The notes under the pieces are model-generated. The model worked only from the letters and a program-made list of their open reading frames with translations. It was not told the origin of the DNA and did no database searches. Below, one piece after another: positions 14,674-44,214 of a stretch of 44,398 bases of DNA. Origin of the DNA: a virus; the IMG/VR virus record IMGVR_UViG_3300045988_090220, positions 1-44,398 of that record; one strand, 5' to 3'. Numbering within the stretch: the first letter of the stretch is position 1; each line of letters starts with the position of its first letter. A program made the position numbers and the translations under genes.

Positions 14674-16326
14674 TCAAATAGGCCGTTTGAAAACTTCCAC
14701 CTTGCCCCCGGACAGCATACGGATTTCGTTCTCCAACAGGGAGAGAGAGTCAGGAGCGTCATCGTGCGGAACCTTACCGGAGCGGGTGTAGGTGGTCACT
14801 TCCTTCATGAAATTCCAATACTGACTGCCCCGCTTGTAGGTGGAGGGGTGCTTGAAGTAGAAGTTCTTCTTGATGTTGTCGGAAGCGAACTCAATACGGG
14901 TCTGCTTGTTGGATATCGTGCGCTTCGTGCGGATACCAACAGAGTACCCACGCTCCCGAATGATCTGGTCAACATCTCTGGCATAATATTGACCGGCATT
15001 GTTGGACTCAAAGACAGCGGAAGCCGCCTTGTTCTCGATCAGGCACTTGGCACATTCCGGCTTCGTTACCTCAGCGGGAGAGTCATCAAAGACCACATCA
15101 ACGATATACACAGCATTGCCGTATATCATCGCCACCGGCATAGAGGTCGAGTCAGAGCCGCTTTCCGCCGTATCGCCAACGGCGATGATGGTGTCCGGGT
15201 CACGGTCTTTCGGCAGCTCAAAGAAGTAGTTCAGCTCGTCCTTGCCGAACAGCAGACCCTTCGCTTCAAAGGGCTGTTGCTGGAACTCACTCTCAAACTG
15301 CTCTGCGCTCAGAAGCTCCCGCTGCTCCCGGAAGTAGGCGGTAGTAAAGACCTTCTTGCCCTCCCGCTCGTATTCATAATTGCTCTCGTCCGTCACGAGA
15401 TCGAGGGCGGGTATCTCAATCGCTCTCCAAGCCCAGCCCTCCCGCTGTGCGTGTTCCTGCACACGACCGATGGGGTCATACAGGGAATAGCGAGTGCCGG
15501 TGAAAACCATCGGCGTACCTTCAATGGCACGACCCATAATATCGCCGGAGATCACTTCCCACTTGTCATCAAGCCGCTGGCGGTTCTTCGCCTCCTCACG
15601 ACCCTCCACACAGTCATCGAGGTAGAGGACATTGGTGGCTTCGGACAAGCCCACCTGTCGAGCGTCAATGGAACGACACATGATGGTGGGGAAACGGGAC
15701 TTGCTTTTCAGGTTCGCCGTCTTCGTGTCGGCATTGGTCTGTACCAGCCGTGCGTCCGGGAACACATCGTAGAACAGGTACTCGTTGGGAACTGTCAGGT
15801 ATTCCAGACAACCATTGTAGAAGCTCTTTACAAGGTCATCGCCTGTCCCTTCCATCAGAGTCGAGCGGTCAGGGAACTTGCCAGAGATCATATTCACAAA
15901 ATTGATACCCGTTTGAGACTTTCCCGCTCGTTTCGGCATGGAGATCGTCAAAAGACGCAGCTTCCCGTCCAGAACATCTTGAAACCCCTGTACCATCGGC
16001 CTGAGATAGTGCTTACGGGGAGCATAGAACCGCTTTTCCGGCTTGCGGTCGAGTTCGATATAAGTCATGAAGGAGTCAAAATCATGGGGCGCTTCAAAGA
16101 GAAGACACCGCCGCCACTGTTCATAGAACTTCGCCCCGCCGCCACGGACTACCTGATCTGCGGAGAGTGCCAACAACTTCTTGTTCATCTTATGTGCCGC
16201 CGAGAAATCCTCGGTTTCCCACTCCCGGCACAAAGAAAAGAGATCGCTGTACGCCCCGTTATCTCCCGGTCGGCGGTCGATCACGGCTCGAATAGAGCCG
16301 GAGAGTTTTTCATAATTCATGTGCAT
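14674..16326 (-). CDS. terL: Terminase large subunit
   Basis: 550 aa. Walker A-like MPKRAGKSQTG and a C-terminal nuclease-type region. Followed by the portal gene. The second ATG (16320) has better RBS spacing. Confidence 0.9.
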   Translation of the reverse strand: MHMNYEKLSGSIRAVIDRRPGDNGAYSDLFSLCREWETEDFSAAHKMNKKLLALSADQVVRGGGAKFYEQWRRCLLFEAPHDFDSFMTYIELDRKPEKRFYAPRKHYLRPMVQGFQDVLDGKLRLLTISMPKRAGKSQTGINFVNMISGKFPDRSTLMEGTGDDLVKSFYNGCLEYLTVPNEYLFYDVFPDARLVQTNADTKTANLKSKSRFPTIMCRSIDARQVGLSEATNVLYLDDCVEGREEAKNRQRLDDKWEVISGDIMGRAIEGTPMVFTGTRYSLYDPIGRVQEHAQREGWAWRAIEIPALDLVTDESNYEYEREGKKVFTTAYFREQRELLSAEQFESEFQQQPFEAKGLLFGKDELNYFFELPKDRDPDTIIAVGDTAESGSDSTSMPVAMIYGNAVYIVDVVFDDSPAEVTKPECAKCLIENKAASAVFESNNAGQYYARDVDQIIRERGYSVGIRTKRTISNKQTRIEFASDNIKKNFYFKHPSTYKRGSQYWNFMKEVTTYTRSGKVPHDDAPDSLSLLENEIRMLSGGKVEVFKRPI

Positions 16327-16483: not shown

Positions 16484-17329
16484 TCACTCCACCACCAATT
16501 CACAGTCAATCCAGCTACCAGCACTCAAACATTCACCAACAAAGGTAATGGTATCTCCGACCTTGACTGTTTTAAGATTTTCTTCTTGCTCTTTCTCGAA
16601 CTCGGCGTAGAAAATAACGATTGTATTTCCTACCGTCTTCTCCAAGGTCAAGGTGGCTCCGCCTGTCAGATTAAACAATCCATCATTGGTCATGCCATCA
16701 ATTTTAGCAGTCACTCGATAGCGATTGTTTTTATACAGGTCATCGGCAACCAGTTCGTTTTCCTTATATGCCTTATAGATTTCCTCGAAAGTAGCAGTTC
16801 CTACCGTATCTTCTTCCTTCTCAGTTTCCTGTTTAGGGACAGTTTCGGACTTCTCGCTATTTTCTTGATTATCATTGGACGTTGTTTCTTTGGAGGGTTC
16901 GTTTAATTTTTTGAGAACTTCGGTTTCCTCGTAACCGCACCGGCTGCACCTTGTTACAAATTCACCATCACTCTCGGAGGTAGGTTTAATCCGGCTAACC
17001 TCCCGCATATCGTGTCCTAATCGTTTAATCGTCTCAGTCGTATCCCGGCCACACAAGTCACAATGATATTTTGTATATCCATCCTCTGTACAACTTGCTT
17101 CTTTCGTCTCAACGAGCCTATTCTCATGCTTGCACCATGTGGCTGGGGAGGTAAGTACACCGACTGTAATAACCGCCGCAAAGGAAATCCAAAACCACTT
17201 GAACCACTTCCATTTCGGCTTCTTTCTAATCTTTCGGATAATCCAAATCACCAAGAGAACGGGGGCGGCTATCAATTCGAGGGTGGCTATAAAGGAACAA
17301 ATGTTAGAAATTATTTGCATTTCAACCAA
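16484..17329 (-). CDS. Membrane protein with Zn-ribbon repeats and a C-terminal OB-fold (tRNA_anti-like) domain
   Basis: 281 aa. Two N-terminal hydrophobic helices, CxxxxxxxxC..CDLCG and CSRCG motifs, an acidic linker, and a C-terminus (YKENELVADDLYKNNRYRVTAKIDG...VKVGDTITFVGEC) that resembles the tRNA_anti-like OB family. Confidence 0.6.
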   Translation of the reverse strand: MVEMQIISNICSFIATLELIAAPVLLVIWIIRKIRKKPKWKWFKWFWISFAAVITVGVLTSPATWCKHENRLVETKEASCTEDGYTKYHCDLCGRDTTETIKRLGHDMREVSRIKPTSESDGEFVTRCSRCGYEETEVLKKLNEPSKETTSNDNQENSEKSETVPKQETEKEEDTVGTATFEEIYKAYKENELVADDLYKNNRYRVTAKIDGMTNDGLFNLTGGATLTLEKTVGNTIVIFYAEFEKEQEENLKTVKVGDTITFVGECLSAGSWIDCELVVE

Positions 17330-17942
17330 CCTTTCTTACTCGATCATACCATGTAGACCGACTAATGCCGAGTTCTCGACAACAGTCCGCTACGGTAATA
17401 AGACCGTCTTTTTGTTTTTGAGCGAGTTTTTCAAACTGCTCGTCATCAATCTCGGAAGCGGGTCTGCCGAACCCTCTGCCAGTCTTCACCGACACCCGCT
17501 TGCCATCGACAATCGGCATGGCGGCGATACCCTCAGCCTGCCGCTGCTTGGTCTTCTTACGCTCCTGCTCGGCAACAGCGCCAAGGACTTCAATCAGAAT
17601 GTTGTTGACCATTTCCAGCACCCATGTCTGGTCTTTGAAGTCAATCAGCGTGGTCGGAATGTCGAGGATACGGACGATCACACCCTTCTGCTTGAACCAT
17701 TCCAGTTCTCGCTTCATTTCGTCCTTGTTGCGCCCAAAGCGGTCGAACTCCTTGACGATGACTTCATCACCTTCCCGCACAATGGCCTTCAAAGCATTGT
17801 ACTGAGGACGGTCGAAGCTGCTTCCCGTGATCTTGTCGCAGTACACATTCTCGTCAGGAATATCGAACTTCTCACGGGCGACCTTGAGTTGCCGAGCAAG
17901 GTTCTGTTCCTTACTGGACACACGACCAAGGAAGTATTTCAT
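17322..17942 (-). CDS. Small serine recombinase (resolvase/invertase family)
   Basis: 206 aa. GRVSSKEQ catalytic-Ser motif, DRFGRN, AVAEQERKKTKQRQ and a C-terminal HTH (ELGISRSTWYDRV). Confidence 0.9.
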   Translation of the reverse strand: MKYFLGRVSSKEQNLARQLKVAREKFDIPDENVYCDKITGSSFDRPQYNALKAIVREGDEVIVKEFDRFGRNKDEMKRELEWFKQKGVIVRILDIPTTLIDFKDQTWVLEMVNNILIEVLGAVAEQERKKTKQRQAEGIAAMPIVDGKRVSVKTGRGFGRPASEIDDEQFEKLAQKQKDGLITVADCCRELGISRSTWYDRVRKVG

Positions 17943-17945
17943 GGT

Positions 17946-18179
17946 TCACTCCACCTCGTATCCACCGTCCGGCAGACGGGTATTGGCAGGAACAACGATG
18001 ACCTTGTAATCCATCGCTCTGAGCATAGTGGTCAGCAGGGACACGGGAATGTCCTTGACATTTTTGTTGTTCAAGCGTTCCCAAATGGTAGCGTTAGATA
18101 CCTTGAGCCTTTTTGCGAGTTCAGCGTTGGAAAGAGACTTGGAAGTCATGATCTCTTTCAGGATTTCTCGACCTCTCAT
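17946..18179 (-). CDS. XRE-type HTH DNA-binding protein
   Basis: Start MRGREILKEIM at 18179, set by the GAGGTG RBS and by the consensus promoter lying over the longer ORF start. HTH is LSNAELAKRLKVSNATIWERL. Confidence 0.75.
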   Translation of the reverse strand: MRGREILKEIMTSKSLSNAELAKRLKVSNATIWERLNNKNVKDIPVSLLTTMLRAMDYKVIVVPANTRLPDGGYEVE

Positions 18180-18197
18180 GTTTATCACCTCGGCTTT

Positions 18198-18226
18198 ATT
18201 ATACATATCAAGCGTTTTATTGTCAA
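18198..18226 (-). promoter_or_regulatory. Perfect consensus sigma70 promoter for the HTH-resolvase-membrane protein operon
   Basis: Minus strand TTGACA-17 nt-TATAAT. The spacer is made of the repeated motif CAATAAAACGCTTGA. Confidence 0.7.
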
Positions 18227-18237
18227 GCGTTTTCTTG
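18208..18237. promoter_or_regulatory. Two tandem copies of 15-mer TCAAGCGTTTT(A/C)TTG (operator- or res-like)
   Basis: Copies at 18208-18222 and 18223-18237. The same motif occurs four times at 20353-20438. Confidence 0.6.
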
Positions 18238-18521
18238 AAATTGATCTTTTTATTTTTTGCGGGTATTTTTCAGCTTACCCCGCCCTCGCTGCCGCTGGTA
18301 TATCCCCCGCCCCCGTCACCCATTCACGCCGCTCAGATCAGGCCGGAAAAGCGCAAAAAACAGGGCAGCTCTGCACCGCCCTAACACCCCCGCATTATAA
18401 CACCGCCGCAAACCCCATTAGAACGCCATACACGGCGTTTAGTATAGGCGGTAGTACCAGTATACCACCAAACCGCAAAAGCCCGTAAAACGCCCTTAAA
18501 ACGCCTTTACGGATAAAGCAT

Positions 18522-18554
18522 AAAAACAACCGCCCCGGAATAGCACCGGGGCGG
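18522..18554 (-). terminator. Rho-independent terminator of the five-gene operon
   Basis: Minus strand CCGCCCCGG-TGCTATT-CCGGGGCGG followed by TTGTTTTT, about 95 nt downstream of the stop at 18648. Confidence 0.75.
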
Positions 18555-18647
18555 CGTTCACTTATTCAATTTCAGTATTTCAATCAGGATTTGAAACGGC
18601 AGCAAAAGCAACAAAAGAATTAAATACATAAAAAAATATATCTCCTT

Positions 18648-18914
18648 TCAAGAAAATGTAAAGCGCCTTGTTTCCGTGGCTCTGGTGTACTGTGCTGCCA
18701 CTCCCGGCAACTCTCGCTTTAATGCCGTAGTATCAATGCGGGAGCTTGTAACGGCCTTATATGTGGCCTTGTGTTCCGTCCCTGTTAGCGTGTCCGTGTT
18801 CTGTTCCTGCATAATCTGCTTTAACTGGTCTTTCAGGCCGTCCACCGTGGCGGCAATCTCTTCACCCATGCGGATATACTCCGCAAGCTCTTTCATAATA
18901 CTATCAATATTCAT
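18648..18914 (-). CDS. Hypothetical protein (88 aa)
   Basis: AT-rich ORF. N-terminal coiled-coil-like helix, then KATYKAVTSSRIDTTALKRELPGVAAQYTRATETRRFTFS. No domain I can name. Confidence 0.65.
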   Translation of the reverse strand: MNIDSIMKELAEYIRMGEEIAATVDGLKDQLKQIMQEQNTDTLTGTEHKATYKAVTSSRIDTTALKRELPGVAAQYTRATETRRFTFS

Positions 18915-18926
18915 ATTGCACCCCCG

Positions 18927-19274
18927 TTAAAATACCGTATCAACAACGGTTAGAATTGTTACCCACAGATCAATATACTGTGTGCTGTATCCGGTATAAT
19001 CGCCCCTGTCAAACTCTGTTTTGCCCGTGATAACATAGCCAACTTGTTTTGCGCCCCCGTCTGATAGATCAACGAACATTTCCGACTTGTTTTTAATGGC
19101 ATTTTTGGAAATGGTGATACAGTACTTTTCTTTCACCCGTTCCCGGTAAATTTCAAGCGCATTTTCCACGCTATCCGCATCTATGCGCATATCCGAAACA
19201 ATGCCGCCGTCAATGTACCACTTTTTATTGTTGTATTCTTTCATTGTTGCCGTTGTTTTGAAAATGTAATTCAT
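18927..19274 (-). CDS. Hypothetical protein (115 aa)
   Basis: ORF in the tightly packed island operon. Confidence 0.65.
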   Translation of the reverse strand: MNYIFKTTATMKEYNNKKWYIDGGIVSDMRIDADSVENALEIYRERVKEKYCITISKNAIKNKSEMFVDLSDGGAKQVGYVITGKTEFDRGDYTGYSTQYIDLWVTILTVVDTVF

Positions 19275-19276
19275 AA

Positions 19277-19525
19277 TTAAACCCCCATTCTAATACATTC
19301 ATCAAGTGGAATTTTATACCCATGCACCCGGAAAAATGCGCTATCTTTCCCGTTTGCGGGATAGTAGATTTTGCACCGGTGGAACGCTTTACCGCCGCCC
19401 CACGCCCCGGAAACACAATAAACATAATCGTTAACGCCGTATTCAATGCCTTTAATTTCAAGGCCATTTAAGCCGCTATAATATGCAATGCTTTCCCGGC
19501 TTTCGCAATATTCCCGTTTATTCAT
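19277..19525 (-). CDS. Hypothetical protein (82 aa)
   Basis: ORF in the tightly packed island operon. Confidence 0.6.
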   Translation of the reverse strand: MNKREYCESRESIAYYSGLNGLEIKGIEYGVNDYVYCVSGAWGGGKAFHRCKIYYPANGKDSAFFRVHGYKIPLDECIRMGV

Positions 19526-19862
19526 GATTGCAAACCCCCTTTATAAAATCCCTTGCAAGGCTTTTCAGGCTTTCCCGCTGCTGTTCATAGGAAAGGCTAT
19601 AATCATAGCGGATTTTTTCGGCCTGTTCTTCCACGGCTTTCACCTGTTCATAAGTGGGGCGGATATTTCCGAAAGGGGCATACCCGGTTACAATGGCAAC
19701 CCCGCCGCCCATATCGTAAATATCAGCCGCCCACCCTTCCCGGCGTTGTGTATAGGCAACCGGGCTTTCATAATTCAAAAGATACTGTAAACTACAATAG
19801 GAAACGCAAATAATTGTGGAATAACCGGCCTTTACTGCCTTTTGCGTTGTCTTGAATTTCAT
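19518..19862 (-). CDS. Hypothetical protein (about 114 aa)
   Basis: ATG at 19862 (MKFKTTQKAVKAGY) with an AAAGGGGTG RBS. The longer form starts at a TTG inside the upstream stop region. Confidence 0.6.
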   Translation of the reverse strand: MKFKTTQKAVKAGYSTIICVSYCSLQYLLNYESPVAYTQRREGWAADIYDMGGGVAIVTGYAPFGNIRPTYEQVKAVEEQAEKIRYDYSLSYEQQRESLKSLARDFIKGVCNHE

Positions 19863-19876
19863 GTGATACACCCCTT

Positions 19877-20230
19877 TCAATAATTCACGCTGTTAGCTGC
19901 ACGGCGTTTATACATGGCTTTCAAACTTTCGGCGGGGGTCATATCCGCCGCTTTCGGCTTTTCCATTTCTACCGGCTGCGTATCCCACCACGCTTTCCCG
20001 CCGCCGTTCATATCATAGAACGAAAGAAAACTATTCACATGGCGCATTGTAGTAGCAGAATAACCGCCCCACATACGAACGAACCGCCCCGCCGCCGTAA
20101 TACGGCAAACAAAAGTATTATAGGACTGTAAAACTTTTTCGCCGTTTTCCGTTTCAATGATTTTCGCCTTTCCGTAAAAACTTTTTGCTCGATCAGAACC
20201 GCAAACGGGTAAATCAAATATCTTTTTCAT
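19877..20230 (-). CDS. Hypothetical protein (117 aa)
   Basis: First gene of the island operon (MKKIFDLPVCGSDRAKSFYGKAKIIE...YSATTMRHVNSF). Confidence 0.65.
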   Translation of the reverse strand: MKKIFDLPVCGSDRAKSFYGKAKIIETENGEKVLQSYNTFVCRITAAGRFVRMWGGYSATTMRHVNSFLSFYDMNGGGKAWWDTQPVEMEKPKAADMTPAESLKAMYKRRAANSVNY

Positions 20231-20352: not shown

Positions 20353-20445
20353 TCAAGTGTTTTATTGATGGTTAGAGTATATCAAGCGTTTTATTGTTTG
20401 TCAAGCGTTTTATTGATATTTTATCAAGTTTTTTATTGACGCTTG
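20353..20445. promoter_or_regulatory. Four copies of TCAAG(C/T)(G/T)TTTTATTG plus one inverted half site
   Basis: Copies at 20353-20367, 20382-20396, 20401-20415 and 20424-20438. ACGCTTG (reverse complement of CAAGCGT) at 20439-20445. Confidence 0.6.
20376..20404 (-). promoter_or_regulatory. Consensus sigma70 promoter of the five-gene island operon
   Basis: Minus strand TTGACA-17 nt-TATACT. The spacer and -35 are built from the repeated 15-mer. Confidence 0.65.
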
Positions 20446-20619
20446 CAACCGTCTGAAAAACTACACTTTTTTGCACTATACATTATAAAGGGCAAAAACA
20501 CCGCCCCGATCAGGCCGGAACCCCGGCAACGCCCACGCCGCCGCGGTGGAACCCGCCGCCCCGATCAGGCCGGGAAAAGGAAAAGCCGCCGACCCCGTGA
20601 AGAGATCGGCAGCTCTGTC

Positions 20620-20774
20620 AAAGTCGCAGACCTTCGCCGGAAAGTCGCAAAGTCGCAAAGTCGTTCGGGCGAAAGTCGTGAAAGTCGCGGGATAGTTGCA
20701 AAGTCGCTCGGCATAGTCGTAAGCCATAGTCGCAAAAGTCGTGAAAGTCGCTCAGTCCTCCGGGTCATAGTCGC
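20620..20774. repeat. Array of 13 octamers (A/T)AAGTCG(C/T), read on the plus strand
   Basis: Copies start at 20620, 20641, 20649, 20657, 20672, 20681, 20692 (variant ATAGTTGC), 20700, 20713, 20726, 20735, 20744 and 20767. The array abuts the terS stop codon (20752-20754). Confidence 0.9.
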
Positions 20775-21321
20775 TGGACGAACCAACCACATCTTCGAGG
20801 TACTTCTTCTCCAAGTCCTCGGCGGGAACCTGATTTCCGAGCTGCTGGTTGGGTGTCAACACGACCTCCTGCTTGTCCGCATAGCCCATGTTGTTCTTCA
20901 TCAGGAAGATACCGGCAACCGGATTGATCTTTCCGTTCTGCATATAGTTTTCCATCTGAGCGTTCAAAAATTGATACGCCTTTTTTAGCAAGTCACGGCT
21001 TTCGGTGGGGATATAAGCACTTTCAATGCCATTTACCCATCTCCACAAAGTCATTCTATCAATGCCAAATGCCAATGCCATACCCGCAACAGAGGGTTTC
21101 ATGTCATCTTCGGCACAAATCCGAAAGTAATTTCTAATACGCTCAGTCACAGCTTCCGGCTTGGTCATATCCACAGCAGGCCAGTCCCACATTCTCAGAT
21201 CGTGTTCAAGAAACTTCCGATTATCTCCCGGTTGAAGCTGTGCCGTACTATCAGGCCGCTTATTGCCGCCAGTACCCTTCGGTCTGCCACGACCACGCTT
21301 TTTCACAATTTCATCTGCCAT
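20752..21321 (-). CDS. terS: Terminase small subunit (gp3-packaging type)
   Basis: 189 aa. Basic N-terminus KKRGRGRPKGTGG, HTH PSVAGMALAFGIDRMTLWRWVNG, and a C-terminal NPVAGIFLMKNNMGYADKQEV motif typical of small terminases. Confidence 0.8.
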   Translation of the reverse strand: MADEIVKKRGRGRPKGTGGNKRPDSTAQLQPGDNRKFLEHDLRMWDWPAVDMTKPEAVTERIRNYFRICAEDDMKPSVAGMALAFGIDRMTLWRWVNGIESAYIPTESRDLLKKAYQFLNAQMENYMQNGKINPVAGIFLMKNNMGYADKQEVVLTPNQQLGNQVPAEDLEKKYLEDVVGSSSDYDPED

Positions 21322-21348
21322 AGTCGTTTTCTCCTTTCAAAGTCGTCA

Positions 21349-21457
21349 AGGTGATAAAGGTGAGTAATCGGGTGCATTTTCCTATAACTATTTCTATATA
21401 CGCGCGTATAAGAGAGAGTTATAGGCATTTATGCCCGATTACTCACCTAACTCACCT
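21349..21457. repeat. Palindromic MITE-like element, copy A
   Basis: Left arm AGGTGATAAAGGTGAGTAATCGGG and right arm CCCGATTACTCACCTAACTCACCT. Inner inverted repeat CCTATAAC/GTTATAGG. Perfect 14-bp central palindrome TATACGCGCGTATA (21397-21410). Both arms are identical to copy B at 42960-43067. Confidence 0.9.
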
Positions 21458-21515
21458 AAAATACGAAAAACAATTTTTCAAAACACGCCAATTTGAAAAA
21501 AGTCTTTGCAGAAAC

Positions 21516-21541
21516 ACTCACCTTTATCACCTTTATCACCT
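21516..21541. repeat. Extra inverted arm ACTCACCTTTATCACCTTTATCACCT
   Basis: Nt 21516-21532 are the perfect reverse complement of 21349-21365. TTTATCACC is duplicated. Confidence 0.85.
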
Positions 21542-21543
21542 AA

Positions 21544-21873
21544 CTACCAGTCGGCATTGATGACCACCTTGTTTCCGTGAGCGAGTGCCGTTGCCACAAC
21601 TCTCTCCACGCCGTCCCAGTTGTAGACCTCTTTTTTCACAGCGTAATCGACAAGCTGCTTTGCCTGCTCGTTGTCAAGAACCATGTCCTTACCATACCAG
21701 TCGTTCTCCTTGGTTCGCTTTTCGTAAGGAACATAGTAGCCGAGCTTTTCCAGAAAGTCGTACCAAAGCCGACCACCGCTGTTAGTACCGTCAACCTCTA
21801 CCGTATTGACGACCTCACCACAATGAGGGCAGCGGACATCTCTGCGTTCCATGACCGTAATATCAAGACCCAT
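21544..21873 (-). CDS. Hypothetical protein with CPHCG zinc-knuckle
   Basis: 109-aa ORF with a GGAGGTG RBS. It is the last gene before terS. Confidence 0.6.
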   Translation of the reverse strand: MGLDITVMERRDVRCPHCGEVVNTVEVDGTNSGGRLWYDFLEKLGYYVPYEKRTKENDWYGKDMVLDNEQAKQLVDYAVKKEVYNWDGVERVVATALAHGNKVVINADW

Positions 21874-22078
21874 TTTCCAACACCTCCTGAGCCATCTTCA
21901 CCAGTTCGACCAAATCATAGAACCGCCGAGGGTCTAAACCGGTCTGCCGCTTCACCTTGTCCAAGTGATAGAGAACCGTGTTTCTGTGTGCAAAAATAGC
22001 ACGAGCAACATCGGTGACATTCATGTTGTGATTTGCCATCGCTATGACAATGTGAGCGTCTTCCTTATTCATAGTCAT
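21863..22078 (-). CDS. PucR/CdaR-type C-terminal HTH protein (candidate late regulator)
   Basis: MTMNKEDAHIVIAMANHNMNVTDVARAIFAHRNTVLYHLDKVKRQTGLDPRRF matches the HTH_30 pattern (..HrNTl.Yrl.ki...tG.d). Confidence 0.6.
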   Translation of the reverse strand: MTMNKEDAHIVIAMANHNMNVTDVARAIFAHRNTVLYHLDKVKRQTGLDPRRFYDLVELVKMAQEVLENGS

Positions 22079-22238
22079 CTGCTCCCCCTTTGGATTGCTG
22101 TCCAAAAATATTGGCGGCGATAAAGGCTTGGGTCAAAGTCATTGCTTCCTTTGAGGATGCTCCTGCGTCAATGAGATTGCGGTAGAAATTCAAAGAAGTT
22201 TCAGCCAAAATACCAATGGCTTTTAGAAATTCATTCAT
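22065..22238 (-). CDS. Small hypothetical protein (57 aa)
   Basis: Hand-translated MNEFLKAIGILAETSLNFYRNLIDAGASSKEAMTLTQAFIAANIFGQQSKGGADDYE. ATGA overlap with the FolD-like stop. Fills an otherwise empty gap. Confidence 0.5.
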   Translation of the reverse strand: MNEFLKAIGILAETSLNFYRNLIDAGASSKEAMTLTQAFIAANIFGQQSKGGADDYE

Positions 22239-22891
22239 GCCCTATGCTCCTTTCTTGCAAAGCGGTTGAGCAACACGCTCACGGTGAGCTGACCAATCCT
22301 GTTCACATAGGGACAGTTGAAGAAGTCAGGGAGAGGGACGCTGTTGCCGAGGTCGATGACCAGATCACGGGTGTTGTAGGAAATGTCCTTCGTGATAGTC
22401 GGCGTGGCGTAGATCACCACATCACGGTTTATCGTGGCCTGTAAAAGACTCTTAGTCTTGGAGTGCGCCACCGTCACCGTTGCGTTGTTGAGAGTGAGGT
22501 ACTTTGCCAAGTTCTGAACGGCGTGACCCCGGCCTACGATGGTAATGTCCTTGGCGTGAACCAAGTCCAGCGCAAACAAAAGGGTTAAAGTCGCCTGAGA
22601 GACAGCCGACATTCCCGGCGAGTAGGAGTTATCAATGTCCACATCGGCGGAAATCTGAACGCTGGCAGGGACAGTCTCACCGTCCACGATGACTCCCTGA
22701 TAGGGAGGGGTGAAGTGAAAGGTGTGGTCGCACTCGATACCGAAAGCGTCTGCTTTGCGGTGGACTGCTTTCAGGAACACGCTGTCCTGAGAACCCAGCA
22801 GAAGCAGCTTTCCAGAAGTGGGGAGCAAGCTGGCAGTCTCTTTGTCCAGAGCGGCAGAGAGGTCGTGGATTTTTGCCATTACATCATTCAT
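22235..22891 (-). CDS. Divergent FolD-like methylene-THF dehydrogenase/cyclohydrolase
   Basis: Start MNDVMAKIHDL (22891). ITIVGRGHAVQNLAKYLTLNNATVTVAHSKTKSL...DVVIYATPT...VIDLG...IGQLTVSVLLNR aligns by eye with the FolD NAD(P)-binding domain (VVIGASNIVGRP..LLL..ATVTxxHxxT..ADLLIVAVG..VIDVG..VGPMTVA.L). Confidence 0.55.
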   Translation of the reverse strand: MNDVMAKIHDLSAALDKETASLLPTSGKLLLLGSQDSVFLKAVHRKADAFGIECDHTFHFTPPYQGVIVDGETVPASVQISADVDIDNSYSPGMSAVSQATLTLLFALDLVHAKDITIVGRGHAVQNLAKYLTLNNATVTVAHSKTKSLLQATINRDVVIYATPTITKDISYNTRDLVIDLGNSVPLPDFFNCPYVNRIGQLTVSVLLNRFARKEHRA

Positions 22892-23069
22892 AGTGCTTCT
22901 CCTTTCTTTCAAAGTCATGGAGGGAGATCATCTTCTCACGGGTGAGCTTGTCAACCACCCGCCCGATCTCCGAGTAGCCGCAAACCGCTGCCAGCCGTTC
23001 AAGGTTTCCCTTGGTCTGTGCCGTGACTACGATAGAAATACGGCGGAGGTTCTTTTTCTCAGTCTTCAT
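22884..23069 (-). CDS. Ribbon-helix-helix (CopG/Arc-like) small protein
   Basis: MKTEKKNLRRISIVVTAQTKGNLERLAAVCGYSEIGRVVDKLTREK, with a GGAGGA RBS. Only the last 61 codons of track ORF 22884-23327 are plausible. Confidence 0.5.
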   Translation of the reverse strand: MKTEKKNLRRISIVVTAQTKGNLERLAAVCGYSEIGRVVDKLTREKMISLHDFERKEKHYE

Positions 23070-23364
23070 CGCTTTCCTCCGTGAACACGGTTCCCTCGAA
23101 CCCTTCCGCTCGACCGAGAAGTCTCCACAGTCCCTCGTCCTGTTCACCGCAACAGGGGCAGGATTTGGCGGCAATTTTTCCGAGTTTCTGAGGAAAATTC
23201 TCGTCTTCCTCGACATACAGAAGGTGTTCGCACTTGCGGCACATGAAGACGGTGAACATCGGGGGTAGTGGGATAGGTCGCTTTCGTCCACAACGATGAC
23301 AGACCCACTCGTGCTTCCAGTCTTCACGAGTCATTTCATTGCCACATACACACTTTTTACTCAT
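23059..23364 (-). CDS. Zinc-ribbon protein (four CxxC pairs)
   Basis: Start MSKKCVCGNEM (23364) after GGAGG. Motifs CVCG, CHRCG, CRKC and CPCCG. Confidence 0.55.
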   Translation of the reverse strand: MSKKCVCGNEMTREDWKHEWVCHRCGRKRPIPLPPMFTVFMCRKCEHLLYVEEDENFPQKLGKIAAKSCPCCGEQDEGLWRLLGRAEGFEGTVFTEESDED

Positions 23365-23554
23365 GTTTATCCTCCATTCGGTCGCAAACGTCAGAGATTG
23401 CACAGTCTTCACAGCCCTTATAATAAAAGCAGTCCCGGCAACAGGAAATGACAGGCATACACCGCTCAGCGTATTCTTCACAGTTAGCAACAGGGCAAGT
23501 GCCATCAACGCAGGCAACGCCCACATAATCGGGGCAGTATTCAGGCTTCATCAT
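23357..23554 (-). CDS. Cys-rich small protein (12 Cys in 65 aa)
   Basis: MMKPEYCPDYVGVACVDGTCPVANCEEYAERCMPVISCCRDCFYYKGCEDCAISDVCDRMEDKHE. Confidence 0.55.
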   Translation of the reverse strand: MMKPEYCPDYVGVACVDGTCPVANCEEYAERCMPVISCCRDCFYYKGCEDCAISDVCDRMEDKHE

Positions 23555-23906
23555 CGCTGTCCCCTTCCGTCAAAGCTCTTGCGAGATCGTCAATCGTCTG
23601 GTGCATGACTCTATCTCCAATATCATCTTCGTTCTGACACCAGAAAGAGAATTTCAGGTGTAGCAGCTCATGTACCAGCGTCTGTTCAAAGTCGAACGGT
23701 ACAATGCGGTCGCCGTAGTAGGCGGGGTCAATGATCTCGACACGAGCAACCTTGATTGATTCTGACCACTCGGTACAGCCTGCGACATCATTCATCGTCA
23801 TTTCTTCGGGGCGAAGGTGAGTCAACAGCTTTATTCGCCACTCCTGCAAGCAGAGTTTTCGCTTCCACTTTTCCAGCAGGGCGAGTTCTTCTTTACAGGC
23901 GACCAT
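23541..23906 (-). CDS. Putative zinc metallopeptidase-like protein (HExxH)
   Basis: 121 aa containing the HELLH motif (TLVHELLHLKF). Confidence 0.45.
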   Translation of the reverse strand: MVACKEELALLEKWKRKLCLQEWRIKLLTHLRPEEMTMNDVAGCTEWSESIKVARVEIIDPAYYGDRIVPFDFEQTLVHELLHLKFSFWCQNEDDIGDRVMHQTIDDLARALTEGDSDDEA

Positions 23907-24081
23907 GCTGACGCTCCTTCACAATACGAATTTTTCTCAGGCGTTTGCCGCACCGCTTACAGACTTCATAATTGCTCTGCCAGCGGTGAGAACCATTACG
24001 GTACTTGACCTGAATATGAACATACGGGTCTGCTGTGTGGATACCGAAGCGGCATAGGATAGAGTTACATGACCGGTTCAT
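23893..24081 (-). CDS. Small basic zinc-finger protein
   Basis: 62 aa. CNSILC...CKRCG. TAATG overlap with the helicase stop. Confidence 0.5.
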   Translation of the reverse strand: MNRSCNSILCRFGIHTADPYVHIQVKYRNGSHRWQSNYEVCKRCGKRLRKIRIVKERQHGRL

Positions 24082-25589
24082 TAGGACGCTCCTTTCAGTC
24101 TGAGGTTCTTGTAGACAGGGTAGCCCTGATACACAACCTTGCCGCCGTGCCGCTCAGGGTGAGTCTCCATGTCGGCGTTGAACCGCTTGGCGGAACAGGC
24201 GAAGTACCCGTTGGACTTGCACCAAATCTTGTAAGCGTCAAACAGAGACTTCGAGCGGGTGTTGACCCCCTCAGCCTGCTCACAGCGTTCTTCGAGGAAC
24301 TGCAAGCACAGGTCGTTGTCACGCTCGTATTGGTTGACCACCTTCCGCATGGCGGGGGACATTTTCAGACCGAACCGTTTGTACTTGAAGTATCCGGCGA
24401 CCAGCCAAGCGAAAATGCCCTGCATGGCTTCCTGCGTCTGAAACTCATTTTTCAGGTTCTTGTCCTGCTCCGCTTCGGTGAAGTGACGGTTGAACTCAAT
24501 GACCCGCACACGGTCGGAAGCGAACAGGGACTTGTCGCTGACGGTGGGAAGATCGTTGCAGGAAAGCCAAAGAGTGAACTGCGGCAGAAAGGTTGTAGCA
24601 GTCTCATAGAGATTCCGGGCCTTGATTTCTTCACCGCCCGTGAGCTGCTTGATCGTTTCCTCGTCCAGCTTGCCGTACTGATTACTCTCAGCCATCGTGA
24701 CAAACCGTTTGCCTTTCAGGGAAGCCAGCATGGGGTTCGCTGCTTCGGCGTTCTTCGACCGCTCTGCCTTGCAGATGATCGATACGGGGGACACGGAAGC
24801 ATAATCACCGAGAAGGTGATGAATTGCTGAGAGCATGGTGGACTTGCCGTTGCGGGTGGTCTTGCCGTGAAGAATAAACATACATTCCTCGTTCGCCATA
24901 CCCAGCATAGAGTACCCCAGCGCCTTTTGCAGATAGTCCGCCTTGTCTTCGTCATTACAAGTGACCTCTGCAACGAACTTCTCCCAGCGGCGACACCGTG
25001 CGTCCTGCAAGGTATAGTTGAAGTTGGTCTGCATGGTCAGGAAGTCGTGCCAGTCATGCTCTCGGAACTCCATCTTTTCGAGGTCGAAGGTGCCATTCTT
25101 GCAGTTGATAAGGTAGGGGTTTGCGTCAAACTCCGTCGAAGCGATAGGAAGCACACTGGCAGCGTCCTTCATCAGCCGGTCACGGAAGCGCCGGTCGCCC
25201 ATCTTTACGATGAACTTCATGTACTCGGTGCGGCGTTCTTCATTGGTAATCTCACCGCAGTAGAGCGCCATCAGGCGGCAGAACTCTTTGATCTTCTCTG
25301 CTACCAGTAGAGAACCCGTGTCCTTGCGCCATGCACCCTCGGAATAGGTGAACCAGCTTTTCGCTTCGGGGCAGTAGCGGGTATCATTCTTGTAGCACTC
25401 GGAGAACAGCTCCGCCATGCCGGACTCGTCCCACGAATACCCCGTGCCGCTGATCGGGTGGCTATGCTCAGGCTGTGCTTCCTTGATTTGGAACATCACA
25501 CGGGACTGAGCTTCGTCCATGATGTAACGACCGTTGGAGAGCTGGAAAAGAGTCTGTTCTTCGGGGACGGTTGTAATTTCATCAGCCAT
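24081..25589 (-). CDS. D5/P4-type primase-associated SF3 replicative helicase
   Basis: D5_N-like NPYLINCKNGTFDL. Walker A LHGKTTRNGKST. Walker B-like KRFVTMAES. The ATG at 25589 (MADEITT) follows AGGAGAG. Confidence 0.8.
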   Translation of the reverse strand: MADEITTVPEEQTLFQLSNGRYIMDEAQSRVMFQIKEAQPEHSHPISGTGYSWDESGMAELFSECYKNDTRYCPEAKSWFTYSEGAWRKDTGSLLVAEKIKEFCRLMALYCGEITNEERRTEYMKFIVKMGDRRFRDRLMKDAASVLPIASTEFDANPYLINCKNGTFDLEKMEFREHDWHDFLTMQTNFNYTLQDARCRRWEKFVAEVTCNDEDKADYLQKALGYSMLGMANEECMFILHGKTTRNGKSTMLSAIHHLLGDYASVSPVSIICKAERSKNAEAANPMLASLKGKRFVTMAESNQYGKLDEETIKQLTGGEEIKARNLYETATTFLPQFTLWLSCNDLPTVSDKSLFASDRVRVIEFNRHFTEAEQDKNLKNEFQTQEAMQGIFAWLVAGYFKYKRFGLKMSPAMRKVVNQYERDNDLCLQFLEERCEQAEGVNTRSKSLFDAYKIWCKSNGYFACSAKRFNADMETHPERHGGKVVYQGYPVYKNLRLKGAS

Positions 25590-25899
25590 TTTCAGCACTC
25601 TCCTTTGCGAACTTTTTCAATGGTCGAAGGTCGGCTCTGACCCTCCTAATGTATTTCTCTACGATGGACTCAACCTCGTAGTAGGTGACGGGGTTGACCA
25701 CAGAGCGGTCAAAGGCTCGTGCGATCTCATTGACTTCCCGTGTGCGGTCGATTTCGTTGTGGTAGCTGACTGCAAACTGCTGACCGTTTCTCATGGCAAC
25801 CGTGAGAACAAAGGGGTATTCCGCTCGTTGACCTTTACTGGTTGAGATAGTCACAATGTCTGCGACATTGAGAAGGGTTCCATTGAAATTGTAAAGCAT
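25582..25899 (-). CDS. Hypothetical protein (105 aa)
   Basis: ORF with a GAAAGGAAG RBS and an 8-nt overlap with the helicase start. Confidence 0.6.
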   Translation of the reverse strand: MLYNFNGTLLNVADIVTISTSKGQRAEYPFVLTVAMRNGQQFAVSYHNEIDRTREVNEIARAFDRSVVNPVTYYEVESIVEKYIRRVRADLRPLKKFAKESAENG

Positions 25900-25903
25900 G
25901 AGG

Positions 25904-26047
25904 TCACTTCCTTTCCTTCATCGCTCTCGCCAATACCAAAATGGCACACTTCTGAGAGTCTTCGTCCCACCATGCACATAACTCGTGGCAATAATACCCT
26001 TCATCTATTTTAGGATTTAACGGGCATACCTTGTTCTTAATCTCCAT
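25904..26047 (-). CDS. Small Cys-rich protein (47 aa)
   Basis: Hand-translated MEIKNKVCPLNPKIDEGYYCHELCAWWDEDSQKCAILVLARAMKERK. Overlaps the MazF-like stop by 11 nt and ends 4 nt before the next start. Confidence 0.45.
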   Translation of the reverse strand: MEIKNKVCPLNPKIDEGYYCHELCAWWDEDSQKCAILVLARAMKERK

Positions 26048-26399
26048 CGTCTACACCCCCCCCATAAAAGAAAGCGTTCTTCAAAGCGGTGTCCACATGA
26101 CGCATGATCTCAGGCGGCAGAGTGCAGATGTATTCCCAATCATCGGACACATCTACAACACGCACCTGTTCACACTCAACCATGCTCGGCTGTAAAGACC
26201 CCCAAGTGACAGCCACATGGGTCGGCAGTTCGAGCCGCTTGATTTTAGTGGTCAGGGGAACGACAATGCTGGTGGAAGAAAACTGATTGCCGACATTGTT
26301 TTGCACAACCACCCACGGACGCTTACCAGCCTGAATATGACTGTTGGCAAGCATGGGAACATCAATGATGACGACATCGCCACGCTGATAAGGTTTCAT
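26037..26399 (-). CDS. MazF/PemK-family toxin-like endoribonuclease
   Basis: 120 aa. RGDVVIIDVP...GKRPWVVVQNN...SIVVPLTTKIKRLELPTHVAV...SMVECEQVRVVD follows the PemK/MazF pattern (G.v..v.f....E..k.RP.vVvs......v.v.piTs......p.hv.i....S.v...qir.id). Confidence 0.7.
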   Translation of the reverse strand: MKPYQRGDVVIIDVPMLANSHIQAGKRPWVVVQNNVGNQFSSTSIVVPLTTKIKRLELPTHVAVTWGSLQPSMVECEQVRVVDVSDDWEYICTLPPEIMRHVDTALKNAFFYGGGVDDGD

Positions 26400-26401
26400 A
26401 A

Positions 26402-27184
26402 TTACCTCCTGTATCTGGTCACGCTGTTGACAATCAACTCAACTTCTGACTGCGGGAGAGGGGGCTTGCAAGCCTGCTGATTGGCGTACAACAGCTCTTT
26501 GTAAATCTCTGCTTTGGTGTATCCTTGGTTATGGAGCTGACCCGCCAGAGAAGTCAGGCTGAGGTTCCGGCTTCCCGGTGTGATAGGCGGGTATTCAGGC
26601 TTCAAATGCAGTTTGCCGTTTTCAGGGCGGCGATAGATGGGGGAATAGATACGCTGAGGAGCAACCGTATCTGAACTACTTTCTTTCGGTGTGTCGGGAA
26701 AATACTTCTCGACCACATAGTCAATCGCTGACTGGTTTTCAACGATCTCGGAGAAGATCAGAACCTTGCCGGTCATGATGAAGTACCGATTGCTCTTGTA
26801 AATCTCCACGGCGGCACGGTTGTTCTTGCCCTTGAAGGGCAGCTTTCCACGAACGAGAATGTGAACCCCCCTCCCGCTTCTGGACTTTTCCGTGTAGGAC
26901 TGACAATGACCGATAATGTCAGCCGCCAGCGGGTTTAGAAGCCCATCAGTAAAGCCATCGTCAATGTCGATACCTACGACCCCTGTATCGTGAAATACAT
27001 AGCCAAGACCGTCATAGTAGCCGTGCTGGACATTGTGTTCAGCGTCAATGTAATTCGACCATGTATCAGGATTAGAGGAAGAAGCTGCCTTTCTCACGGT
27101 GGCCTGCATGGGAACCTTTGACCCGTCCCACACATTGACCCATGCCTTTTCCGCTCGGAGTTCGGCGGGTATATTCTCATACAT
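26402..27184 (-). CDS. AEP-superfamily bifunctional primase-polymerase (prim-pol)
   Basis: Start MYENIPAEL (27184) after GAGGTGG. DxD motif GIDIDDG and SRSGRGVHIL motif. The C-terminus looks PriCT-like. Confidence 0.7.
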   Translation of the reverse strand: MYENIPAELRAEKAWVNVWDGSKVPMQATVRKAASSSNPDTWSNYIDAEHNVQHGYYDGLGYVFHDTGVVGIDIDDGFTDGLLNPLAADIIGHCQSYTEKSRSGRGVHILVRGKLPFKGKNNRAAVEIYKSNRYFIMTGKVLIFSEIVENQSAIDYVVEKYFPDTPKESSSDTVAPQRIYSPIYRRPENGKLHLKPEYPPITPGSRNLSLTSLAGQLHNQGYTKAEIYKELLYANQQACKPPLPQSEVELIVNSVTRYRR

Positions 27185-27194
27185 TGTTGCCACC

Positions 27195-27746
27195 TCAGCT
27201 TTCATATGGACTGGGTAAACTCCAATCCCATTCGCTCCCGCCACGATACTCATTGCGAAAGTGATTTTGATATCCGTCACCTGAAAAGTACAAATAATCT
27301 TGTGGCAATACCCGTCCAACGTTTATTTGCCCTTGTTTTTCAGCGAAGTATCTGGATAGAACATCTTCGCATAGAGCTTTCAAACTCTCATCCACAGGGT
27401 TGTCCTTGCTGTAACCAACGAAATGTCCGGGTATCGTTACCGCAGCTACAATAGAGCCGTTCCCGTACCCCGCTTCGACATGATTTAGTGCGCACCATAT
27501 AACCGCTGCTTTTTCTGTATCGGACGCAACACTACCAGCCTCACTCCATAGCATTTTCGCCAGTACAATCACTTCTTCGTCTGTCCACGGCTGAGGTGTC
27601 ACCTCCGGCTCTGGCGCCGGGGTGACTACCTCTACCTCCTCGACAACGGGCGAGGGTTCTTCCATCTCAACCGTGGGCATTTTCCAGCAGAGAACGGTGA
27701 TAATGATGACGAACCATAGGGAGATTGTAATTGTTAGCTCTCGCAA
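27195..27746 (-). CDS. Membrane-anchored SleB-like cell wall hydrolase
   Basis: N-terminal TM helix (ITISLWFVIIITVLCW), a Pro/Glu-rich linker, then VLAKMLWSEAGSVASDTEKAAVIWCALNHV resembling the Hydrolase_2 (SleB) family. Confidence 0.55.
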   Translation of the reverse strand: MRELTITISLWFVIIITVLCWKMPTVEMEEPSPVVEEVEVVTPAPEPEVTPQPWTDEEVIVLAKMLWSEAGSVASDTEKAAVIWCALNHVEAGYGNGSIVAAVTIPGHFVGYSKDNPVDESLKALCEDVLSRYFAEKQGQINVGRVLPQDYLYFSGDGYQNHFRNEYRGGSEWDWSLPSPYES

Positions 27747-31883: not shown

Positions 31884-32936
31884 TCAATCCTCCTTAATAA
31901 TTTTCGGCATAAGTTTGTAGCCATACTCGGTAGAAGTGTACTTATCCAGCACACCGTCCGCTTTCATGGCTTCCTTGTCGATTTTGCTGACCGTAGCTCT
32001 GCTGACCTCCCAATTATAGGCAGAACCAGCGATAGACACCTTCTTGTCACCGTCACGGAACTGAGCGATTGCGGCTTTCTTAATCATGTCGGTCAAGACC
32101 TTGTACCGCTTTTCGTCCTCAGCCACCTCAGCGGAGTGAGCGTCCAGCTTGGCTTTCAGGTCTTCGGCTTCTTTGACCAGCGCCGCCATATCCGTTTCAG
32201 GAGACAGGTTGTTGGTGCGAAGGGCTTTCAGGATTTCAGCGTCCTTACGCTCGTCAAAGGCAGGAGAAATACCGCTCTCAACGAAGTCCTTCCACCATTT
32301 CAGGGCAGGCTTTACATACTTCTTCTCGAAGTCAGGATACCGCTCAGACACCTTGAAGGGACGGGTGATGGTATTCTCACCGCTGCACACGAACTTCTCA
32401 GGGTTATCGTAGTCCTTGGGTTCGAGGAAGGAAGCGACCATGATAACCTCGTCCACGCCGAGAAGGTAAGCGTACAACGCCGCCTGCAAAGCGTAATACT
32501 CAGGAATGTCATCGACCCAATCCTCTATGCGTTTACTCGTCTTCATTTCGAGGACGGTGGTCGGCTTCCCCTCCTTATCCACCAGAAGGTAGTCCCAGCT
32601 ACCACCAAGGACTTTCTGATCGGGGAAGAAATCGCCCCATGTACGCTGGAAATAGTTCTCTCCAAACACATCGGTAGGGGTGATAAGGTTGCCCATCATG
32701 TAGGCTTCCTTCATGTACTGGGCCTGCTTCGGCTCAATAGTTTTACCGGCAACGGTATAGATCGTATCTTCAAAGGGTTTCTCATAGGTACGAGTGACGG
32801 CGCACCATACCTCAAACGGGGTTGTCCATGCGTTCAGCCCCATAACTGCGGCGAAACGAGTACCTGTCAACTTCTTAGGTCTGGCCGGGGGGATAACTTG
32901 AATACGGTTGCCGTCAAGCCATTCTACGGACTTCAT
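31884..32936 (-). CDS. YqaJ/lambda-exonuclease-like PD-(D/E)XK recombination exonuclease
   Basis: Start MKSVEWLDG (32936) after GGAGGT. LTGTRFAAVMGLN...WDYLLVD...VLEMKTSK...YYALQAALYAY fit the YqaJ-type nuclease pattern. Paired with the ERF gene. Confidence 0.6.
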   Translation of the reverse strand: MKSVEWLDGNRIQVIPPARPKKLTGTRFAAVMGLNAWTTPFEVWCAVTRTYEKPFEDTIYTVAGKTIEPKQAQYMKEAYMMGNLITPTDVFGENYFQRTWGDFFPDQKVLGGSWDYLLVDKEGKPTTVLEMKTSKRIEDWVDDIPEYYALQAALYAYLLGVDEVIMVASFLEPKDYDNPEKFVCSGENTITRPFKVSERYPDFEKKYVKPALKWWKDFVESGISPAFDERKDAEILKALRTNNLSPETDMAALVKEAEDLKAKLDAHSAEVAEDEKRYKVLTDMIKKAAIAQFRDGDKKVSIAGSAYNWEVSRATVSKIDKEAMKADGVLDKYTSTEYGYKLMPKIIKED

Positions 32937-33426
32937 CGTAATACCTCCATTCAATATTGTGAGTTTGTTTGATAATCCCTCTACAACACTTTGCAATCTG
33001 ACTGTGAGCAATACCGGAAGCATCAGAAGCAGCTTTTACGCCATCGAATGTCTTTGTTGACCCGTCAGGGAATAGTCCGATTACAGCCCTACGACATTTC
33101 GATTTGCTCATGCGCTGATTGCGAGTGCCGTGGTTATCGTTTTCCTTGTGTGTTGCCCATTCAAGGTTAGAAACGGCGTTGTTGCGCTTATTCTCGTCCT
33201 TGTGATTGACTGTCGGTTTGTTGTAGGGATTAGAAATAAATGCCAGAGCGACCAGCCGATGAATCGTGAAACACTTAGAGTGACCATGGACGGTGAGAGT
33301 TACAACCTCATATCCATAACGGTCAATTTTCGGTTTCAATTCCCGTTCCTTTCGGAGAGAGTAGACAGTACCTCTGTCACTCACGGCGTAGTAGCCCTCA
33401 TACCCGGGAACGGGTTTCCAGCTCAC
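32914..33426 (-). CDS. HNH homing endonuclease (NUMOD4 + HNH_3 type)
   Basis: WKPVPGYEGYYAVSDRGTVYS (NUMOD4), HRLVALAF..VNHKDENKRNNAVSNLEW.THKEN (HNH) and a C-terminal IENR-like HTH. GTG start after AGGAGGGG. Confidence 0.85.
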   Translation of the reverse strand: MSWKPVPGYEGYYAVSDRGTVYSLRKERELKPKIDRYGYEVVTLTVHGHSKCFTIHRLVALAFISNPYNKPTVNHKDENKRNNAVSNLEWATHKENDNHGTRNQRMSKSKCRRAVIGLFPDGSTKTFDGVKAASDASGIAHSQIAKCCRGIIKQTHNIEWRYYDEVRRMA

Positions 33427-33428
33427 CC

Positions 33429-34184
33429 TTACCCCTCCTTTGCCGTTTTCATTTCGTAGCCAGCCAACATATTGTTCACGCCCTCGATCAGAGCGTCACA
33501 CTTGTCGGCTTCGATCTTGGAAAAGCCCTCGGTCTTCATGGCGATGGTCTGCACGAACTGTTCCTGCTCTGCATCAATATCCATGAGCTTTTTCAGCAGA
33601 CTTTTCAGCGTACCGACCTGTTCCTCGGTAGCCGCACCAGCAGGAGCGCCGGTCAGTTCTTTCTTGATCTCCTGACGCTGTTCAGTGGTCACAGGGGGCT
33701 TCTTCGTGACGGTGGGAGAGGGGGCGGGAGTCGTGTCAAACTCGCCGCTGTCGATACTGTCATGCTCCACAATGTCCAAAACGAGCTGCCACAGGTAGCG
33801 GCGAATGTAGGTGATGGAGCTGCCGGTCGCCTGCATTTCATTTGTGACCTGATTGCCAGCGTTGGATACGATAGGAGCGATGGGGGTGTACGGTGCCACG
33901 AAGTCAATGTAGTCCTCACGGTCATTGACATTGTAGACACGAGCGGTCGCCTTGTCGCCGTACATGGACGGAACCATCATCAGACCGATTTCAAGGAAAA
34001 TCTGCTCGGCCGTGGGAACAATGTCCGCCAGCTCGAAATACTTATATTCGAGCTTCATGTGCTTGCCGCTCTTGTCCACGCCAGCTTCGAGGAAGCGCAC
34101 ACGGGCAAGCTGCAACTTCTGGAACACATTCATGGTGGAATAATCCACCGCCGCACTCTCGGCGGCTTTCTTGGTAGTAGCCAT
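33429..34184 (-). CDS. ERF-family single-strand annealing protein
   Basis: 251 aa. VFQKLQLARVRF...KHMKLEYKYFELADIVPTAEQIF resembles the ERF family core. Confidence 0.65.
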   Translation of the reverse strand: MATTKKAAESAAVDYSTMNVFQKLQLARVRFLEAGVDKSGKHMKLEYKYFELADIVPTAEQIFLEIGLMMVPSMYGDKATARVYNVNDREDYIDFVAPYTPIAPIVSNAGNQVTNEMQATGSSITYIRRYLWQLVLDIVEHDSIDSGEFDTTPAPSPTVTKKPPVTTEQRQEIKKELTGAPAGAATEEQVGTLKSLLKKLMDIDAEQEQFVQTIAMKTEGFSKIEADKCDALIEGVNNMLAGYEMKTAKEG

Positions 34185-44082: not shown

Positions 44083-44117
44083 AACAAATTCCTTTCCGGC
44101 GCATCTGCGCCTGTCTT

Positions 44118-44192: not shown

Positions 44193-44214
44193 TTTCTACA
44201 CCTCTCCGTATGCC

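Follow-up and report, generated by a model that had tools for sequence, protein, structure and literature searches.

The DNA analysed here (the window; 44,398 nt, IMG/VR record IMGVR_UViG_3300045988_090220) is a complete, circularly closed temperate phage genome encoding a large serine integrase, PolA, a D5-type primase-helicase, Erf plus YqaJ and a lysis cassette (Table 1). A 574-aa tail-region gene and, across the junction, holin and endolysin genes occupy the window ends (1–2029 and 43068–44398; L214), across which the lysis cassette wraps; interpretation of these ends as host flank was rejected because the genome is circularly closed.

A small terminase gene (terS) on the minus strand is followed at its 3′ end by a dense array of short repeats. 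The terS product matches Pfam GP3_package (PF16677; E = 5.6e-12, 46.2 bits, curated cut-off 29.4), the family that also includes P22 gp3, as well as phrog_606, bearing out the assignment made when this DNA was described from its letters alone (the preliminary description). The AF2 core of TerS is helical, and its best specific match to a PDB fold, P22 gp3, is not significant (E about 2). Sequence searches of the PDB with TerS and TerL gave no hits for either. TerL has only 24–28% identity to TerL of TP901-1 and S. thermophilus phages, which we take to be pac-type, and a weak match to a T7-type RNaseH-like domain.

Within 155 bp the array contains 12 exact copies of WAGTCGY and a single degenerate one: nine match (A/T)AAGTCG(C/T) (20620, 20641, 20649, 20657, 20672, 20681, 20700, 20735 and 20744, within 20620–20751), three are ATAGTCGY (20713, 20726 and 20767) and the degenerate copy is ATAGTTGC (20692). 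The 13 octamers of the preliminary description are therefore obtained only with a looser consensus, whereas its account of the layout was confirmed. Every array copy is on the plus strand, the unit on the coding (minus) strand being (G/A)CGACT(T/A)T, and three copies (20641, 20649 and 20657) adjoin one another at 8-bp intervals. One copy abuts the terS stop codon (20752–20754), another (20767–20774) lies inside the last terS codons (S-D-Y-D), and of the two at the terS start one overlaps the ATG and the other is just upstream of the RBS. ORFs predicted across the array are likewise read as translated repeats. In the window and most relatives, class 2 phages (below) excepted, the array starts 0–2 nt past the terS stop codon. 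Over the whole window WAAGTCGY occurs 12 times, against 4.8 expected and with none of 100 shuffles reaching 12, and all 18 WAGTCGY copies are on one strand, 12 of them inside the 155 bp. No A+T-rich unwinding element adjoins the array in the window, Rfam covariance models gave only sub-threshold chance hits and no family in the array region, a plasmid search with the array as query returned no match, and a literature string search for the repeat found nothing.

The last copy is followed directly by an intrinsic-terminator-like hairpin, retained by compensatory changes in divergent relatives, and then by G+C-rich repeats, a second small hairpin and a strong sigma-70-like promoter predicted to restart transcription into the cargo genes. 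Termination followed by a promoter after the array indicates that terS closes one transcription unit and that a new unit begins ~180 bp further on. The G+C-rich CCGGCCTGATCGGGGCGG repeats vary in copy number or form among relatives (L211 has (CCGGCTGA) x4), and a conserved CCCTTTATAATGTATAG-like element comes after them. Small ORFs and genes for a wHTH protein, a resolvase/invertase and a Sie-like protein make up the cargo between the array and terL in the window. Across phages this region is variable (2–8 kb), relatives adding an anti-repressor and RtcB (L081, L088, L126, L149, L176, L177 and others), and homologous small cargo ORFs are found in either orientation with respect to the array, suggesting inversion or shuffling; the only inverted repeats in the window cargo are one 15-nt pair. 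The terS–terL gap bordered by the array is a hotspot for cargo genes.

On the other side of terS, just upstream of the gene, are nested long inverted repeats of AGGTGATAAAGGTGAG, an element that also matches gut phage record MT838319; it may control terS expression, either as an operator or through RNA structure. A small PucR-type HTH protein encoded further upstream may regulate transcription of the terS unit. A gene for a MazF-like endoribonuclease lies between the PriCT-1 primase part and the D5-type helicase.

Table 1 Features of the window, with positions as numbered in the 44,398-nt genome.
Feature	Position	Strand	Remarks
Tail-region gene	305–2029		574 aa
terL	14674–16326	−	4.4 kb of cargo between terS and terL
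Cargo, array to terL	16484–20230		
Inverted repeat pair in cargo	17309–17323 / 19801–19815		15 nt
Resolvase/invertase gene	17322–17942		
Sigma-70-like promoter	20376–20404	−	Near-consensus TTGACA-17-TATACT with TG
ORFs over array	20476–20727; 20565–20792		Read as translated repeats
G+C-rich repeats CCGGCCTGATCGGGGCGG x2 and second small hairpin	20501–20562	−	Between terminator and next promoter
Intrinsic-terminator-like hairpin	20582–20616	−	15-bp stem, T-rich tail; directly after last copy
Heptamer array	20620–20774	−	12 exact WAGTCGY and one degenerate copy; conserved in relatives
terS	20752–21321	−	189 aa, GP3_package family (Pfam and phrog_606); stop codon abuts array
Two same-orientation copies bracketing terS RBS/start	21320–21346 (21320–21327; 21339–21346)	−	Pattern match; mostly conserved, individually mutable in relatives
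Nested inverted repeats of AGGTGATAAAGGTGAG	21348–21541		47-nt arms 21349–21395 / 21411–21457; 18-nt perfect partner 21516–21533
Scattered same-orientation copies in upstream genes	21754–25048 (21754, 22587, 25042)	−	Window part of one-sided gradient
PucR-type HTH gene	21863–22105		HTH_30, E = 6.5e-13; 550 bp upstream of terS
D5-type helicase	24081–25598		
MazF-like endoribonuclease gene	26037–26399		
PriCT-1 primase part	26402–27319		
YqaJ exonuclease	31884–33023		Recombination module
Erf	33429–34184		Recombination module
DNA methyltransferase gene	36021–37463		One of the phage's methyltransferases
Holin and endolysin genes	43068–43874		Lysis cassette wraps across window ends

Conservation of the array among relatives

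The same heptamer, (G/A)CGACT(T/A)T, was found in about 170 related loci, in 5–15 copies with irregular spacing. As anticipated in the preliminary description, related phages keep the array beside terS: it lies directly after the gene in about 130 loci, a retention that places it in the packaging region. Nearly all of 80 IMG/VR relatives with TerS 71–94% identical carry it immediately past the stop codon, in 5–14 copies (mode 10), whole units having been gained or lost. Among 21 unique equal-length arrays, 9 of 63 motif columns are variable compared with 15 of 41 spacer columns, variation in the motif being tolerated at the first (G/A) and sixth (T/A) bases. A pattern scan identified dense arrays beside TerS homologues down to 26–47% identity, in widely different layouts that include, in L167, a run of eight CGACTTT units placed head to tail. 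Gaps measure 7 to 40 bp, some lineages having head-to-tail 7-bp tandems, and helical phasing of the repeats was rejected, as the best period is 7 to 13 bp depending on lineage. Every dense array found belongs to a phage with a TerS of the GP3_package family. Fixed genome ends at the array were also rejected: arrays are mid-contig at varied positions, with no pile-up at contig ends. Alternative arrays were sought in L208 and L210 and none was convincing.

In L014 (3083–3670) and L027 (6587–7180) a NUMOD4/HNH homing-endonuclease gene is inserted right after the terS stop codon, displacing most of the array, and six to eight motif copies are present within and just after the HNH ORF.

Hosts are Oscillospiraceae and other Clostridia, e.g. 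Dysosmobacter segnis. Relatives come from human-gut viromes (222 in one viral-contig scan; TerS homologues number 1751), and none of those found is a cultured phage. Annotation of certain large serine integrase homologues as fusions of 740–820 aa, e.g. with an Rce1/CPBP-like domain (P0203/L216 and P0198/L219), points to integration within a host gene of the CPBP family; the flanking host DNA of L216 starts at about 12464.

A second class of phages (class 2, about 58 kb) has the same heptamer in 7–18 copies, located in a non-coding gap of 1.1 kb that follows closely on genes for an O-like initiator and DnaB helicase, 6–8 kb downstream of a gene for a TerS-like protein with 34% identity. Near the array, class 2 and the window phage have only a handful of genes in common, namely those for TerS and TerL (about 33% identity), a resolvase, a Sie-like protein and some of the small cargo ORFs, whereas its replication module (O-like plus DnaB) differs from the D5-type primase-helicase of the window. 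The D5/P4-alpha-like gene is 3.3 kb upstream of the window array, and homologues are 2–5 kb upstream in most loci outside class 2. Gene order in every class is early genes and terS, array, 2–8 kb of variable cargo, then terL and portal. No protein family common to all array-bearing loci was found among the neighbouring genes, and a dedicated neighbouring reader protein was rejected on this ground.

Relationship of the repeat to TerS and TerL

Co-variation of the repeat with the DNA-binding domain of TerS, envisaged in the preliminary description, does not hold: the same heptamer is found beside TerS proteins of 26–100% identity, whose HTH recognition helices differ widely. Conversely, relatives of the L209 TerS (loci L224–L260) have other short direct repeats at the same position after the stop codon. 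Type B (CG-CACAAAG-G, CACAAAGG) is present as one to three copies after the stop codon and four inside terS, with none downstream; type C consists of two to six 17-bp tandems (AAAAATTTGACCGAAGC) that merge into the terminator stem; and type D (GCGCAGAA) occupies the same spot after terS. TerS of L232 (type B) and L227 (type C) are nearly identical over their full length and are followed by different repeats, which places a mosaic breakpoint at the stop codon. Type B is also found behind TerS whose N-terminal half, HTH included, is different (L257, L259 and L260). When TerL is clustered at 60% identity or more, types A (the heptamer), B and C occur together within clusters and type A is spread over at least five of them; TerL was rejected as specificity determinant since its clusters do not track the motif. 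By sequence comparison, the repeat follows neither TerS nor TerL.

Polarity of the repeat

Same-orientation copies were counted per kb by distance from the array at 174 loci. On the side of terS and the early genes their density falls from 2.4 copies/kb (0–1 kb) through 1.3 (1–2 kb), 0.56 (2–3 kb), 0.26 (3–4 kb) and 0.2 (4–5 kb) to 0.09 (5–6 kb), while on the terL side it is about 0 (four copies in a total of about 760 kb). Copies in the opposite orientation stay at 0.05–0.1/kb on either side at the same loci. This one-sided gradient was seen in four separate groups, including class 2, where the upstream genes are unrelated. When synonymous codons of the window were shuffled, 1.8 copies were expected in the upstream genes, where five are observed (P = 0.02), and 2.8 in the late genes, where there are none (P = 0.05). 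In the literature searched, no description was found of heptamers stacked densely in one direction at the terS 3′ end and thinning out over kilobases on one side only. Host flank obtained from integrase look-ups (20 kb only, too little for a test of Chi-like enrichment) has four copies against about 3.8 expected, both strands considered, all four co-oriented with genes.

Two further biases were noted in the window. CCWGG does not occur at all in the late half or in the early half (none observed against 13–25 expected for each of CCAGG and CCTGG), and CGACT/AGTCG is depleted ~2–3-fold outside the array side, CGACT being low on both strands. Together these suggest restriction-site avoidance; the phage itself encodes DNA methyltransferases (Table 1).

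Discussion

The array is a real, conserved, one-directional repeat stack just after terS, and it probably marks a DNA-packaging boundary. It appears to be a selected, direction-specific DNA element tied to the boundary between the terS unit and the part of the genome holding cargo, terL and structural genes. The packaging recognition site proposed in the preliminary description is retained in part, its TerS neighbour, conserved position and motif columns steadier than the spacers speaking for it and co-variation, phasing and the gradient against it.

The reading we tentatively favour, though we hold it well short of probable, is one in which additive polar sites are stacked for a DNA-tracking enzyme to read as it enters from a terminase-cut end, i.e. 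a Chi-like brake beside pac. The first terminase cut would fall immediately downstream of the array, with packaging toward terL, so that the array would be the first element met by an enzyme entering the left-behind end and tracking toward terS. Each heptamer would be an independent, additive site on the strand ending 3′ at the cut (5′-RCGACTWT-3′), and jointly the sites would save terS and the early genes from loss by halting degradation or triggering recombination in time; the reader could be a host AddAB/RecBCD-type enzyme or another tracking enzyme. The array, its conservation and polarity, its decoupling from TerS and TerL and the terminator and promoter beside it are observed; where and in which direction the cut is made, which enzyme reads the sites and what becomes of the DNA are inferred. 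Additive sites free of spacing constraints, a single orientation, decay from a sharp boundary and independence of phage protein lineage fit an enzyme tracking toward terS, for which entry of RecBCD/AddAB at an end left by terminase is the established example. All 18 window copies have one orientation, and density rises toward a boundary that would be a DNA end. The same polarity recurs in the four groups, class 2 with its unrelated upstream genes among them, and copies exceed the synonymous-shuffle expectation in upstream genes and are depleted from late ones. Free spacing, tandems and sites inside the inserted HNH ORF suit independent sites, the motif follows neither TerS nor TerL nor the replication module, no neighbouring partner protein is common to all loci, and the four host-flank copies are all co-oriented with genes.

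Several observations sit awkwardly with such a polar brake, however. The 20 kb of host flank shows no clear excess, types B and C occur in near-identical backgrounds, which would be awkward were the motif fixed by the host, and there is no obvious reason why the motif should be avoided downstream. The phage also has a recombination module of its own. An array of ~12 copies should leave little selection for single copies far away, unless each site is recognised poorly, and in most lineages the array abuts the terS stop codon. Known Chi sequences are G-rich, and this motif is not. A direct precedent is provided by lambdoid phage LLS and P. aeruginosa phage MD8, in which co-oriented Chi sites are clustered terminally at the end exposed after the terminase cut (PMC12315714). 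As in the array, many copies of a short asymmetric motif lie nearly all in one orientation toward the exposed end, presumed in our case. In LLS and MD8, however, the motif is the proven Chi of the host and is spread over kilobases in phages without Rec modules (PMC12315714), whereas 70% of the array copies lie in about 150 bp, the reader is putative and the phage has Erf plus YqaJ, a kind of module that the Chi-rich lambdoid phages do without.

In a more specific form of the proposal, which we consider unlikely as it stands, RCGACTWT would serve Dysosmobacter-like Oscillospiraceae as their Chi-type sequence, attenuating AddAB, or else be what a new kind of polar reader recognises, with 10–15 copies acting as a nuclease brake at the packaging end.

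The main rival, which we rate only slightly lower, is recognition of the repeats by TerS oligomers that would position TerL for the first cut; a simple landing pad is doubtful because the repeat is constant while TerS changes. Such a pac site would suit an array that lies beside terS in about 130 loci spanning 26–100% TerS identity, is confined in its dense form to phages with this TerS family and has further copies bracketing the terS start. The modal copy number of 10 is close to TerS ring sizes, and TerL is distantly related to TerL of presumably pac-type phages. Since the HTH of P22 gp3 is occluded and may not read DNA, variation in the HTH helices is not fatal. However, near-identical TerS proteins have different repeats and different ones the same repeat, TerL does not co-vary with the motif, and the class 2 array is 6–8 kb away from terS. 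The repeats also lack helical phasing, form 7-bp tandems in some lineages and extend into a 5-kb one-sided gradient that a landing pad does not predict.

Known pac sites show similar divided likenesses. Pac of P1 comprises clusters of TGATCA/G hexamers, bound by PacA and regulated by Dam methylation, that flank the cut on both sides. Both it and the array are dense, irregular sets of short repeats in or beside the small-terminase gene, with action that is additive in P1 and would be so here, but the array is one-sided, one-directional and decoupled from TerS sequence. Clustered repeats are also known from SPP1/SF6 pac, with its pacL, pacC and pacR boxes (PMC4737164). These too are direct repeats at the terS gene, thought to organise the TerS ring; unlike the array, the SPP1 repeats are few, lie at the terS 5′ end and involve DNA bending, and the SF6 DNA-binding domain binds non-specifically. 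P22, by contrast, packages from one asymmetric pac within gene 3 (core AAGATTTATCTG), not from an array (PMC10996546). Kinship with P22 pac via AAGTCG was considered and dropped, as AAGTCG is outside this essential core and the pseudo-pac consensus has no need of it.

Another DNA-binding protein is a distinctly less likely partner, whether the repeats were origin iterons for a P4 alpha-type primase-helicase, a polar fork barrier or an omega-heptad-like operator or centromere. The idea draws on the D5/P4-alpha-like gene upstream, on the class 2 array in the gap after the O-like and DnaB genes, and on the contiguous heptads of L167, which resemble omega-binding arrays. The octamer iterons of P4 ori/crr and the omega heptad arrays of pSM19035 have units of 7–8 bp, as the window array does, and they are bound by, and co-vary with, a replication or partition protein; in contrast, no partner protein was found for the array, and its motif spans different replication modules. 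One motif thus accompanies two unrelated initiator types, contrary to iteron–initiator co-variation. A small protein family common to all array-bearing loci and an A+T-rich unwinding element beside the window array are both absent, and a gradient into coding regions is not an iteron feature.

Very unlikely is an RNA-level role as a binding or cleavage motif in the 3′ UTR of terS mRNA, serving termination, stability or terS translation: the array is always sense, between stop codon and intrinsic terminator, copies bracket the terS RBS, the motif is in early and absent from late mRNAs and the phage has a MazF-like endoribonuclease gene, but no Rfam family matches, conserved structure is not evident, the class 2 array lies outside a 3′ UTR with a clear adjoining terminator, and MazF is not universal among array-bearing loci.

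Phages with the array are abundant in human-gut viromes, and a packaging-boundary marker readable from sequence would make genome ends, packaging direction and transduction potential predictable from assemblies. If the heptamer is read by terminase, it would be a pac code independent of the TerS DNA-binding domain, with a bearing on how TerS rings recognise DNA. If it is determined by the host, it would give a first handle on the Chi/AddAB system of Oscillospiraceae. Should the array prove to be a Chi-type sequence or the site of another polar reader, it would show where packaging starts in hundreds of uncultured phages and at the same time expose a recombination signal of their hosts.
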